Shown: positions 39,001 to 42,000 of the stretch, one piece after another | How the letters are laid out: each line of letters starts with the position of its first letter | How positions within the stretch are numbered: the stretch's first letter is position 1 | NCBI GenBank assembly: GCA_027623675.1 | Contig: JAQBVF010000015.1 | Span: 17,606 to 81,605, forward strand | Reading direction: 5' to 3' | DNA: 64,000 nt | Source: Chloroflexota bacterium | GTDB taxonomy: Bacteria; Chloroflexota; Dehalococcoidia; Lucifugimonadales; UBA3495 | Position numbers: made by a program

Positions 39001-42000
39001 GGCCGGGTCTGGTTCGAGACCAACGTGGACAACTACGGCGAGGTCTACGTTGATGGGAACATCGACCGCGACAAGTGGGTGGTAACCGGCAACAACACCC
39101 CCAAACGCATCCTCATCGAAGACCCGGCGGTCCCGGGGACCGAGCATGTCATCGCCGTTCTGGTGGCCAACGCGCCGCTGGGCGTGCCGGTGGGCGCGAT
39201 CTTCATGCGCTACGCCACCTTGGCATTCGAGCCTGCGCCGGGAGCTTAAGAGCGCCGTCTGCACACCATCAATCTGGACATACCGGCCGGCAGCCCCGCG
39301 AAGGGGCCGCCGGCCGATCTGACATATGGGGGACGCCATGAGCAGCGGATCATTCGCCGGCAAGCTGGCCGCGCCCGAATTTCCGGAAAGGCTGGAGTGG
39401 ATCAATTCTGACCGGCCCGTGACCCTGCGGGGACTCAAGGGAAAGATCGTGGTCCTGGACTTCTGGACCTACTGTTGAATCAACTGCGCCCACATCTTTC
39501 CGCAGTTGCGGAAACTGGAAAATAAGTACGCCAATGAACTGGCGGTGATCGGTGTCCACACGGCCAAATTCCCCAACGAAAAGGACACCGGCAATCTGGC
39601 CAGCGCGGTGCGCCGGTACGAACTGGAGCACCCGGTGATCAACGACTCTGAATTCCAGGTTTGGCAGCAGTATTCCTGCCGGGCCTGGCCGACGTTGATG
39701 TTCATCGACCCCCAGGGAAATGTGATTGGCAAACACGAAGGCGAGATGAGTTATGACGCCTTCGATGGACTACTCGGCAAGATGTTGGCCGAGTTTGACG
39801 CCCAGGGTCTTTTAAATCACGAACCGTTGCCGTCCAAGTTTCGATCGGCGCCGGAGACGCTGCTCAGTTTTCCCGGAAAGGTGCTGGCCGACGGGCCGAG
39901 CGGCCGCCTTTTCATCGCCGACACCAACCATAACCGTGTCGTGGTAACTTCACTGGACGGCGCTGTGCGGGACGTCATCGGCAGCGGCCAAGAGGGTCTG
40001 ACTGATGGCGATCTCGCCGGCTGCGCCTTCAACCATCCGCAGGGCATGGCGCTGGATGGCGAGACGCTGTATGTGGCCGATACGGAGAACCACGCGATAC
40101 GCAAGATTGACTTGGGGACGGGGAAGCTGGCGACCATCGCCGGCACCGGCGAGCAGGGACATACCAGGGAAGGCACCCGCCCGGGCCGGACCATGGAACT
40201 TAGCTCCCCGTTCGACCTGGTGCACCATAACGGAATCCTGTATATCGCCATGGCCGGGATCCATCAACTATGGTCCATGGATCTGGATTCGGGCATGGCC
40301 GGACCCTTCGCTGGAAACGGCAAAGAGGCGATCACCGACGGGCCGTTGGCGAACGCGGAGCTGGCCCAGCCGTGCGGCATCGCCACCGACGGGGTCAAGC
40401 TCTACTTCGCCGACAGTGAGACCAGCTCGGTGCGGTCGGCAGATATCAACCCGGCGGGCAAAGTGCAGACCATCGTGGGCCTGGACCTGTTCGTCTTTGG
40501 CGACGTGGACGGTTCGGACCACCGGGTCAGGCTGCAACACCCCATCGGCATCGCCCACCACGACGGCGTGATCTATATCGCCGACACCTACAACCACAAG
40601 ATCAAGCGGGTGCTGCCCGCCACCAGGAGCGCCTTCACCGTCTTGGGAACCGGGGCCTTCGGCCATACTGACGGGGCGGCCGAGGTAGCCCAGTTCTCCG
40701 AGCCCAGCGGCATCAGCTTCGCCAACGGCAAGATGTACATCGCCGACACCAACAACCACGCCATCCGGGTAGCGGACGTGGATTCGGGAGAGGTTTCCAC
40801 CTTTGAGATAACCGGCCTGTGAATCGGAGCTAAAAGGCTGATCTTGGGCGTGGGGCGGGCCACACGGCCCGGGCAAAAGGTACCATTCGTCTCTGTTGCC
40901 CTCATACCGGCGGATATACAGTATTGATGTCAGGGGAAATGAGCGGACAGGACCGGACCGACGCACCCATCATGGCAGGCGAAACCCGGACTGGTCCGAG
41001 ACCCTAGTACGGCACAACAACGTGGAAAGCCTCATTCACACGGCAAATCGGGATTGTCCAGCCCGTGTCAGGGCGGCATCCATCAGGAGGTGAAAACGGT
41101 CCGAAAATACATATTGGATCATGCTTGGAAGTTCCCGTCTGCGGCCCCTACGGCCGTAAAAGTAGAGGAACTAGAAGCTATACCTGCCAGGTGGGGGCGG
41201 CAAGCCCATCGGCTCTTAAATTGACATAATTAAAACCCAATAACCGTCAGCTTCGCCTGCCCAACAGCGATTTAGCGAATCAGCAGGAGGAAAAGGTTAA
41301 GCGAACACGGTGGGTTCATCCGGTAGTGCATGCCGGCGAGACAAAAGGGGCTGTGTTATACCATCTGGTAACTAAGAGGCCAGGGGATCAATCAAGATAG
41401 CCTGGCCTTTTTCGTTGTTTGATTCCAGTCCGCGGATACGCGAATCGCCCCCTGGGGGTTGGCCGGGCTATCTTAGCCGGTTGCCCGGATATCCAAGCCG
41501 GCTTTGTCCGAGTGCCGCACTAGGCGGTGGTCAATGGCCAGGACCCCTTGCCAAGTTGGGTCCCCTTTGACTTATACCAGTACCGCATCGCCTGGGCGTC
41601 GGCCTCCTTGGCTCAGAATGGGTCAATATCAAACTGAGATTCCCGAATCATGAGAATTTGCCATGATTGGGATTACCTCGGTATGACCCAGGCATCCAAG
41701 TCCGGGCGTTTCTGGGAGGAAAAGCGGGGGCATCAGTGGTCTCGGGGCATACTCACCGCAGGTGCGGACGGGTCCCGGCATCTACTCCGGAGACTGGCTG
41801 TGGATGACCAAGACGCGGTCCAGGTGGGCCAGGTCTTGTTCGACGCTGGTGGCGCCCTCGGGGAAATGCTGCAACGCCAATCCTTGGACCACCGGGACCT
41901 GTTCCGGGTCCAGTTCCAAGAGGATGATGCCGTGGTCCTTGAGCTTGTCTTCAGACTGGATCAGCAGACGGCGGACCAAGTCCAGGCCATCCGGTCCACC

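Follow-up and report, generated by a model that had tools for sequence, protein, structure and literature searches.

An in-frame TGA codon in a gene of a Chloroflexota bacterium raises the question of whether translation ends there or whether the codon is decoded as selenocysteine (Sec). The gene lies in the window, by which we mean the whole stretch of 64,000 nucleotides that was analyzed. Under translation table 11, the locus appears as two open reading frames (ORFs) in the same frame: 39326-39478, which encodes 50 amino acids from the first ATG or 46 from the second and ends in FWTYC just before the TGA, and 39506-40822, which encodes 438. When the TGA at 39476-39478 is translated as U, a single 498-residue protein with the sequence FWTYC-U-INC is obtained, in which U is residue 51. 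One gene of 498 codons plus a terminal TGA then spans 39326-40822 on the forward strand, and the in-frame TGA is its sole interruption. An earlier note on this DNA had joined two predicted genes (g02192 and g02193) into one of 498 amino acids, which the read-through translation bears out; the coordinates given there are window coordinates, and subtracting 17605 from them leads to unrelated ORFs. The features of the locus are the following.

39326-40822, + strand: whole gene of the putative selenoprotein, with a thioredoxin-like domain and an NHL propeller (read-through translation, Pfam, matches to SOQ1 7djj and NHLRC2 6gc1)
39371-39793, + strand: thioredoxin-like domain of the TlpA/ResA/DipZ type, approximately residues 16-156 (DipZ 2hyx, Pfam)
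39473-39487, + strand: predicted redox motif C-U-I-N-C, TGT TGA ATC AAC TGC (translation and the loci of the order that were read)
39476-39478, + strand: in-frame TGA, putative Sec codon, residue 51 (alignment to the second Cys of CCINC, conservation across the order, Sec machinery in the genome)
39497-39514, + strand: hairpin, putative bacterial SECIS element (fold, bSECIS criteria, covariation, synonymous freezing)
39860-40801, + strand: NHL-repeat beta-propeller, approximately residues 179-492 (SOQ1 and NHLRC2 propeller structures, Pfam NHL)
40820-40822, + strand: true stop codon, likewise TGA (end of the orthologue alignments, nothing protein-like beyond, RF2 in the genome)

The alignments to orthologues stop at query residues 495-498, which supports the last of these codons as the true stop. 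Translation past it gave no protein-like sequence, and a search of 40823-41781 for a second TGA-containing gene found none.

Relationship to SOQ1 and NHLRC2

The read-through protein matches Arabidopsis SOQ1 (7djj, E = 3e-126, residues 15-492) and human NHLRC2, the FINCA disease protein (6gc1, E = 1e-112; a single alignment stretch, residues 13-493), confirming the homology over the thioredoxin-like and NHL domains that had been proposed before. Pfam recognizes Thioredoxin_8 (4e-14) and NHL (5.6e-25, in four stretches), with AhpC-TSA and Redoxin also matching; the first domain matches DipZ (2hyx, E = 1.6e-23, residues 16-156), and the propeller region, residues 179-493, matches the NHL constructs of SOQ1 (7djm and 7djl, E about 5e-77) and NHLRC2 (6g7w, E = 9e-65). 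Both domains of the NHLRC2/SOQ1 family are present, the number of propeller blades being taken from the solved homologues. In both proteins, U51 falls opposite the second Cys of CCINC, and the cis-Pro and the Asp affected in FINCA disease (V-N-D, the equivalent of NHLRC2 Asp-148) likewise align to their counterparts; C-U-I-N-C differs from the CC(I/V)NC found at the CXXC position of the family solely by the presumed Sec at the second Cys. The earlier placement of Sec at human Cys-90, the N-terminal Cys of the CXXC position, agrees with this alignment and with the NHLRC2 structure paper, which puts CCINC at residues 89-93, in the cleft between the domains.

With SOQ1 the protein shares the order of the two domains and the motif context FWTYC-C/U-INC, C431 of SOQ1 occupying the position of U51. 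SOQ1 differs in having Cys instead of Sec and in adding a HAD domain, a membrane helix and a C-terminal nDsbD-like domain, which takes electrons and carries the reported methionine sulfoxide reductase (Msr) activity, whereas nothing follows the propeller in the window protein. NHLRC2 is alike in its thioredoxin-like domain, six-bladed NHL propeller, CCINC, cis-Pro and Asp-148, but has Cys-90 in place of Sec, extra N-terminal helices and a C-terminal domain. The beta-stranded nDsbD-like domain with its Cys pair is absent from the window protein, whose final residue, 498, corresponds to residue 505 in the SOQ1 construct of 667 residues. The term orthologue, as used earlier, is thus appropriate for the first two domains and not for the C-terminal one. 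According to the NHLRC2 structure paper, most bacterial homologues of NHLRC2 lack the C-terminal domain, so that this domain marks the eukaryotic forms and not the family as a whole.

The TlpA, ResA and DipZ (cDsbD-type) reductases share the thioredoxin sub-fold and a CXXC at the same place (SCINC in DipZ), but they have Cys, lack an NHL propeller, are extracytoplasmic and are fed by membrane DsbD/CcdA. Every NCBIfam match was far under its curated cut-off, as for ResA (57 bits against 170), TlpA (27 against 230) and StoA (37 against 210), and judging from these scores the protein is of the TlpA/ResA fold class but is no member of the named ResA, TlpA and StoA families. No selenoprotein-specific NCBIfam model scored over its cut-off, the only one listed being WAxxUGC_long (15.5 bits against 300). 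The protein is probably cytoplasmic, since just about 16 residues precede the conserved domain and no signal peptide is apparent.

Distribution of the Sec and Cys forms

The TGA is found at this position far beyond chance. A single TGA is present in 149 of the 150 best matches of the order, down to 56% identity, and 48 of the 50 order loci that were read have it at the motif codon, in keeping with the FWTYC-TGA-[IV]NC reported earlier. One of the remaining two has TGC (CCINC), and the other (L057) reads FWTSC-TGA-INC, with Ser replacing the Tyr or Phe before the Cys-Sec pair; a further variant, C-U-I-D-C, occurs in G142. The Cys preceding the TGA is kept in 49/49 order loci with the motif read. 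A Cys codon occupies the same position in 16 Cys-form loci and in four others (L238, L239, L245 and L246). In the species-level genome collection, 115 of 118 pattern matches are true homologues, and the reversed pattern, used as a control, gave no match in 401 genomes. The exact counts of the earlier note (90 of 201 genomes; 80 of 87 matches) were not reproduced, the sample of 401 genomes drawn here being a different one.

In the phylum-wide sample, the Sec form was detected in 50 of 401 genomes and the Cys motif in 16. That the Sec form is the rule in SAR202 stands insofar as it is the majority form in the order, but it is not universal, as Cys lineages exist (G046, G042, G184, G166, G301 and G377). 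Nor is it a speciality of SAR202: it extends across Chloroflexota, and records labelled NC10, Rokubacteriota, Planctomycetota, Acidobacteria and others carry it too. The phylogeny requires five changes of the Cys label, of which well-supported branches force at least two. Of the 150 best order matches a single one, G046, is a Cys form; it is nested inside a Sec clade, and its genome (97% complete) gave no selB above the cut-off. Yet selB is kept in nine of the ten Cys-form genomes tested, and the choice between Sec and Cys is therefore not simply tied to the machinery.

No conserved partner gene was found in the flanks of 21 loci, where neighbors are common solely within the window's own family, and the 174-residue ORF upstream has no Pfam match. 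No RNA run containing the gene was listed. Contigs from two runs labelled metatranscriptomic (that they represent RNA is a guess) cover the copies of relatives across the TGA, which does not imply transcription.

The downstream hairpin and the decoding of UGA

The hairpin TTTCCGC-AGTT-GCGGAAA that had been described 21 nt 3' of the UGA is present in the window, with a 7-bp stem (39497-39503 paired with 39508-39514) and the loop AGUU (39504-39507). It begins 21 nt after the U of the UGA, the spacing from the UGA to the loop is 25 nt, and it is the centroid fold (-8.8 kcal/mol). The published bSECIS criteria are a loop of 3-9 nt with a G in its first two positions, a stem of 4-16 bp, 16-37 nt between the UGA and the loop, and a minimum free energy (MFE) of -7.5 kcal/mol or lower; the hairpin lies within all four, its 4-nt loop having G at position 2 followed by U. 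A strict script form of these criteria was passed by 174 of 191 Sec forms, as against 1 of 16 Cys forms and 43 of 1910 shuffled sequences. In most of the 17 Sec forms that failed this perfect-stem test there is a bulge or mismatch; the loop is AUUU, without G, in three. All seven pairs are formed in 160/191 Sec forms, and at most four of the seven in 16/16 Cys forms.

The stem covaries (0.267 against 0.135 when shuffled, with 0 of 500 shuffles as high; 111 sequences), and 91% of cells are paired, against 35-69% when the partner strand is slid. Only four of 226 conserved codon columns have zero synonymous variation, and all four are within the hairpin. Folded as a single sequence, the 71-nt region does no better than shuffles (z = -0.39); the support for the hairpin is comparative only. 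Median MFEs of the Sec and Cys regions (-12.7 and -8.9 kcal/mol, p = 0.001) also differ, although this comparison is crude as base composition differs too, and the fixed-register and criteria tests were relied on in its place. An Rfam scan of 38500-42000 gave no match at E <= 1; we know of no Rfam model for this hairpin, and this null is therefore uninformative. The covariation, the synonymous freezing and the absence of the hairpin from the Cys forms support its acting as a SECIS element.

The same genome encodes selB (347.7 bits, cut-off 242), selA (554.8 bits, cut-off 268) and selD (380 bits, over its curated cut-off), the latter itself with one TGA, as well as a tRNA-Sec (70.4 bits, over the cut-off) that ARAGORN calls tRNA-SeC with anticodon tca. 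It also encodes RF2 (454 bits), which indicates that UGA is otherwise a stop in this genome.

Several readings of the TGA may be considered in this context. One is that it is a real stop, the gene being split or in decay and giving rise to a short peptide and, separately, to an NHL protein of 438 residues. The presence of RF2 would agree with it, and so would the fact that all 120 of the 120 best database proteins are the truncated form of 425-448 residues, under names that include 'alkyl hydroperoxide reductase'. Nevertheless, the 50 codons upstream of the TGA show conservation and can be aligned with SOQ1 and NHLRC2, and truncation would cost the product its entire CXXC motif together with the initial strand of the thioredoxin fold. 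Hundreds of species, with identities as low as about 50%, have the TGA at the same fixed codon, and the rest have a Cys codon there. Selection on the hairpin at the RNA level would not be expected of a dead junction either, and we regard a real stop as extremely improbable. Hairpins 3' of stop codons can stimulate read-through, and the UGA could alternatively be read without Sec, by near-cognate Trp or Cys insertion or local recoding, the hairpin merely stimulating read-through or pausing. The three Sec-form hairpins without a loop G would agree with this. Yet the genome has the full Sec machinery, the codon lies at the catalytic Cys of the CXXC, where Sec/Cys pairs classically occur, the loop size, loop G-U and spacing of the hairpin conform to the SelB-type consensus, and the single Cys form among the 150 best matches belongs to the genome in which no selB reached the cut-off; read-through of this kind seems highly improbable. 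It is thus very probable, judging from the sequences compared, that the gene is a genuine bacterial selenoprotein of the thioredoxin-fold UxxC kind, its UGA being decoded as Sec by means of a SECIS element within the ORF.

The family also appears to be unlisted. No NHLRC2/SOQ1-like family is named among the 119 selenoprotein families of a 2026 catalogue, in agreement with the earlier note, and 'NHL', 'propeller' and 'SOQ1' have no occurrences in it. A literature search linking NHLRC2, SOQ1 or the NHL domain to Sec gave nothing relevant among the papers listed, one SOQ1 match concerning selenomethionine only, and a search for selenoproteins in SAR202 gave no match. The catalogued thioredoxin-fold UxxC selenoproteins (Prx-like thiol:disulfide oxidoreductase, thiol:disulfide interchange protein, thiol-disulfide isomerase-like protein and Redoxin family/Prx-like 3) are alike in having Sec at the N-terminal position of the CXXC, a bSECIS just downstream within the ORF and Cys homologues. 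Among those whose sequences were read, the Sargasso thiol-disulfide isomerase-like protein differs by its motif DW-U-TWC and the GOS Prx-like 3 by FASY-U-GLC, and none of the entries is described with an NHL domain, the window protein being set apart from some of them by description only.

Possible chemistry and significance of the Cys-Sec motif

The most likely scheme, in our view, is one of attack and resolution. SelB and tRNA-Sec, recruited by the 7-bp, AGUU-loop hairpin inside the coding sequence, would decode the UGA at 39476-39478, giving a first domain of the TlpA/DipZ-type thioredoxin fold in which the nucleophile of the CXXC would be Sec, directly preceded by a Cys. The thioredoxin-like and NHL domains would form a cleft holding the motif, as in the solved homologues. 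Sec51 would attack an oxidized sulfur of a client held by the propeller, which may be a disulfide, a sulfenic acid or, as in SOQ1, a partner-domain disulfide; the resulting selenenylsulfide would be resolved by Cys54 and the enzyme re-reduced by a cellular thiol system. Prior work on the homologues offers two reference points. According to a 2024 preprint, C431 and C434 of SOQ1 are a redox-active pair (Em -274 mV) by which its C-terminal domain is reduced, and that domain has Msr activity. NHLRC2 was inactive in an insulin reduction assay, and the 2018 structure paper suggested that it performs no thiol-disulfide exchange. The earlier statement that the biochemical activity of the family is still unknown is accordingly outdated for the redox-active thioredoxin domain of SOQ1, but continues to hold for NHLRC2. 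The insulin result for NHLRC2 does not bear out a classical disulfide reductase activity for the family. The bacterial protein is without the electron-receiving domain of SOQ1.

Alternatively, a selenoprotein might perform chemistry other than disulfide exchange, through a vicinal Cys50-Sec51 selenenylsulfide or by binding soft metals or metalloids, and act as a peroxidase, a sulfoxide reductase or a handler of metal or selenium. The invariant Cys before the Sec in the order would be in line with such a role, as would the CU motifs tied to organometallic chemistry in several catalogued selenoprotein families, the negative insulin assay of NHLRC2, the Msr activity of the lumenal domains of SOQ1 (though assigned to its C-terminal domain) and the lack in the bacterial protein of a C-terminal domain to receive electrons. 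Nevertheless, the redox pair of SOQ1 corresponds to the U and the last C of the motif and not to the vicinal pair, the SCINC of DipZ implies that the reductase role of the fold does not depend on the first Cys, and no metal-related neighbor gene was seen at the locus, so that chemistry of this kind appears unlikely. A more specific proposal, to which we likewise give only a small probability, is that of a self-contained selenoenzyme, in which Cys50-Sec51 and Cys54 would form a selenenylsulfide relay like that of thioredoxin reductase and directly reduce methionine sulfoxide, a sulfenic acid or a peroxide held in the propeller cleft, without the help of a C-terminal domain. In that case, the relay would be the ancestral activity of NHLRC2 and SOQ1, and the bacterial protein, as a naturally occurring form of high activity, could serve to identify the substrate long sought for the FINCA protein.

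Sec/Cys pairs are a recognized marker of catalytic redox cysteines. Returning to the preferred scheme of attack by Sec51 and resolution by Cys54, the apparent use of Sec in place of the conserved Cys suggests that this residue is where the redox chemistry of the family takes place. Sec at the position of Cys-90, selected in hundreds of bacterial species, would argue against the absence of exchange suggested for NHLRC2 in 2018 and agrees with the 2024 preprint on SOQ1. The small soluble bacterial homologue could be used to trap substrates, by means of a Sec-to-Cys or a resolving-Cys variant. The locus would also add a widespread selenoprotein family that is systematically cut in two by gene callers, which bears on selenoproteome counts in Chloroflexota and in ocean and sediment metagenomes, and it supplies a well-supported set of SECIS variants with natural compensatory changes.

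The gene and its in-frame TGA

The earlier note had placed at 39326..40822 an NHLRC2/SOQ1-like gene with selenocysteine (Sec, U) for the second Cys of CC(I/V)NC. These coordinates are valid along the window, where both of its open reading frames (ORFs) are located; subtracting 17605 leads only to unrelated ORFs, and that alternative was rejected.

Features of the region
33266-36735, minus strand: two large ORFs, 569 and 583 residues
38725-39249, plus strand: 174-residue ORF, 77 nt upstream of the selenoprotein gene
39326-39478, plus strand: first ORF, ending ...L-D-F-W-T-Y-C, then TGA
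39476-39478, plus strand: in-frame TGA, motif FWTY-C-U-I-N-C
39497-39514, plus strand: perfect hairpin TTTCCGC-AGTT-GCGGAAA, 18 nt
39506-40822, plus strand: second ORF, in the same frame as the first
40820-40822, plus strand: terminal stop of the selenoprotein gene, likewise TGA
41782-47852, minus strand: PrmC, RF1, UbiE-type methyltransferase, UbiX-type flavoprotein, UbiA prenyltransferase and UbiD decarboxylase

When the first TGA is read as U, the two ORFs become one 498-residue protein with U as residue 51; translation read on beyond the terminal TGA gives no protein-like sequence. Pfam detects Thioredoxin_8 (4e-14), AhpC-TSA, Redoxin and NHL repeats (5.6e-25) in this protein. The NCBIfam matches to ResA, TlpA and StoA are all sub-threshold, and none of the curated selenoprotein families of that collection is matched. 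Among solved structures, residues 13-493 align in a single stretch to the lumenal region of Arabidopsis SOQ1 (7djj, E 3e-126) and to human NHLRC2 (6gc1, E 1e-112); DipZ matches the thioredoxin (Trx) part alone (1.6e-23). U falls under the second Cys of FWTYCCINC in SOQ1 and of FFTYCCINC in NHLRC2. Since the NHLRC2 structure paper puts CCINC at residues 89-93, U corresponds to Cys-90, as previously proposed, which supplies the N-terminal Cys at the CXXC position. Identical residues also align at the cis-proline and at the Asp affected by the FINCA mutation (V-N-D). Unlike SOQ1 and NHLRC2, the protein ends after the propeller and has no C-terminal domain, an architecture described in the same paper as usual in bacteria.

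Encoded in the host genome (G000; 3.07 Mb in 48 contigs, 91.4% complete) are selB (347.7 bits, cut-off 242), selA (554.8 bits, cut-off 268) and a tRNA-Sec (70.4 bits; called tRNA-SeC with anticodon tca by ARAGORN). Its selD (380 bits), located outside the window (G000:C3:53424-54344), contains one in-frame TGA, so the selenophosphate synthetase of this genome is a selenoprotein too. RF2 is also present (454 bits), and UGA is therefore otherwise a stop.

No conserved neighbour of the gene was found. One of the two large ORFs has a cohesin domain (5e-10) and the other no Pfam match; the 174-residue ORF has neither a Pfam match nor a cysteine, and only genomes of the same family have a relative of it upstream of the selenoprotein gene. 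The run from PrmC to UbiD converges on the selenoprotein gene; the ~960 bases between them (40823-41781) hold no convincing ORF, even with TGA read-through, and no Rfam match at E <= 1.

Conservation of the codon and of the SECIS hairpin

Within the order Lucifugimonadales, 257 of 401 genomes yield a match at E <= 1e-30; a part of these matches is weak and limited to the propeller. Exactly one TGA is present in 149 of the best 150 of these 257 matches (identity down to 56%), two of which also contain a TAA, and none in the remaining one. Where the codon was read directly, at 50 loci, FWT[YF]-C-TGA-[IV]-N-C was found in 48 and TGC in one (genome G046); the last locus, L057, fell outside this first pattern with FWTSC-TGA-INC. 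This variant (in genome G140) retains the hairpin, as does another locus (L237, genome G142) with C-U-I-D-C for C-U-I-N-C.

A 2026 review gives as criteria for bacterial SECIS elements a 4-16 bp stem capped by a loop of 3-9 nt with G at position 1 or 2, a UGA-to-loop distance of 16-37 nt and a minimum free energy <= -7.5 kcal/mol. The window hairpin, with a 7-bp stem, the 4-nt loop AGUU, a spacing of 25 nt and -8.8 kcal/mol, agrees with four of that review's four criteria. Folded alone, the 71-nt region is no better than its shuffles (z -0.39), and the case for the hairpin therefore rests on comparison. Synonymous sites were compared in 48 full-length orthologues of the order, over 226 codon columns with a conserved degenerate amino acid. 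Mean normalised synonymous entropy is 0.69 and exactly four columns reach zero: the consecutive codons F-P-Q-L, +7 to +10 after UGA, followed by an R codon at 0.06. Covariation was scored in 111 distinct Sec-form sequences, one per distinct hairpin region, drawn from 169 distinct stretches. Standard pairs fill 91.0% of the cells of the 7-bp stem, against 35-69% with the partner shifted by 1-3 columns, and the covariation score is 0.267 against 0.135 ± 0.010 in shuffles, 0/500 of which score as high. Four of the seven pairs vary on both sides. The outermost one (U-A in 47 sequences, C-G in 38, U-G in 13) joins the first base of a Phe/Leu codon to the synonymous third base of a Lys codon, and its covariation is not explained by coding alone.

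In fixed register, all seven pairs form in 160 of 191 Sec-form stretches (169 distinct, some genomes being counted twice via two collections), and 0-4 pairs in 16/16 Cys-form stretches. A strict four-criteria script, which scores perfect stems only and neither bulges nor mismatches, passes 174/191 Sec forms, 1/16 Cys forms and 43/1910 shuffled Sec sequences; the 17 failing Sec forms mostly have a bulge or mismatch, and three have the loop AUUU, without G. Distant lineages retain a hairpin by other means, such as a shifted register where the protein reads QLAE (CUUCCGC-AGUUG-GCGGAAG) or C-G in place of G-C pairs in the stem (CUCUCCC-AGUU-GGGGGAG); in NC10 records there is a displaced hairpin (CCAGAGC-UGGAC-GCUCUGG).

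In four metagenome runs, with contigs matched to the window at 80% likeness, the bin containing the TGA and hairpin (39466-39519) has the top summed depth in 4/4 (e.g. 519.6 in run X5), which fits an unusual nucleotide conservation among relatives.

Distribution and Sec/Cys exchange

When prokaryotes were scanned for the back-translated Sec motif, with one genome for each species, at least 118 loci matched; among the 118 listed, 115 are true in-frame homologues and three are chance matches. Most titles among them are Dehalococcoidia or Chloroflexota, together with Thermomicrobiales, Chloroflexia, Anaerolineales, Caldilineaceae, Ardenticatenia, Dormiibacterota, NC10, Rokuibacteriota, Acidobacteria, Actinomycetes and Planctomycetota (including one 1.24-Mb contig), although depositors gave these labels to metagenome bins, and a binning error could account for single cases. 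Among 401 genomes sampled across the phylum, at least 50 (including the host genome and the unpublished G626) have the Sec motif and at least 16 (including the unpublished G438) the Cys motif; these are lower bounds, since the patterns miss variants such as C-U-I-D-C. A reversed-pattern control gave no match in this sample, and in the 39 genomes that belong to the class but not to the order the pattern scan found neither motif. Two Sec-motif copies in genome G618 (G618:C157:32468-32491 and 37978-38001), on opposite strands of one contig and 5.5 kb apart, may represent a duplicated gene.

Ten lower-scoring orthologues of the order comprise four with TGA, five free of stops (CCINC being read in four) and one propeller-only match. 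Sec is thus the majority state within the order, where Cys also occurs. The Sec form had been called the rule in SAR202; this stands as a majority in the order, with Cys forms beside it. The Sec form is not confined to SAR202: other Chloroflexota and records labelled as other phyla carry the Sec motif.

A phylogeny of 91 proteins (76 with Sec, 15 with Cys; L057, L196, L200, L206 and L212 left out), reconstructed with the Sec/Cys column masked, requires five changes of the Cys label, at least two of them forced by well-supported branches. The Cys form of G046 branches within a Sec clade; that genome, 97% complete, yielded no selB over the cut-off. The other nine Cys-form genomes tested have selB, and loss of the machinery can therefore account for at most some of the conversions.

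Novelty and possible function

That 39326-40822 is a real selenoprotein gene is strongly supported by these sequence comparisons. It is of a known kind, a Trx-fold UxxC selenoprotein with a SECIS inside the ORF, to which this family appears to be a new addition. Its absence from the selenoprotein catalogue, as previously claimed, is borne out by the descriptions in Table 1 of the 2026 review rather than by representative sequences: none of the 119 prokaryotic families is described as NHLRC2/SOQ1-like or as having an NHL domain, and the review text contains none of the words 'NHL', 'propeller' and 'SOQ1'. Of the broad classes that could formally hold the protein, two with available sequences have other motifs: DW-U-TWC in the Sargasso Sea 'thiol-disulfide isomerase-like' sequences and FASY-U-GLC in the GOS 'Prx-like 3 / Redoxin' sequences. 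'CUINC', 'CUVNC', 'YCU' and 'FCU' gave no hit in the GOS and Sargasso supplements searched, Peng 2016 and deep-Sep 2025 have no 'NHL' in their main texts, and full-text literature searches found no paper on NHLRC2 or SOQ1 with selenocysteine. The best 120 relatives in public protein collections are all truncated (425-448 residues) and, if they bear a name, are called 'alkyl hydroperoxide reductase' (Chloroflexi bacterium or SAR202 cluster bacterium), 'hypothetical protein', 'sugar lactone lactonase YvrE' or 'beta-propeller fold protein YncE'. The family is a widespread and systematically mis-annotated one.

The structure paper places CCINC of NHLRC2 in the cleft between the two domains and reports NHLRC2 as inactive in the insulin assay. 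For SOQ1, a preprint describes C431-C434 as a redox-active pair (Em -274 mV) from which electrons pass to a C-terminal-domain Cys pair, and attributes to the lumenal domains the reduction of methionine sulfoxide in the lipocalin LCNP. In the bacterial protein, Sec51 would make the nucleophilic attack and Cys54 would resolve the product, with the client held by the propeller; given the missing C-terminal domain and the lack of a conserved neighbour, this client would have to be a separate molecule. The main functional rival is a vicinal selenenylsulfide between Sec and the Cys just before it, a reading that the invariance of that Cys allows. The selenoprotein is probably cytoplasmic, as only ~16 residues precede the conserved domain. 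The chief value of the selenoprotein gene is that it marks the position of Cys-90 as a catalytic redox site in the NHLRC2/SOQ1 family; it also offers a tractable bacterial form with which to look for substrates.
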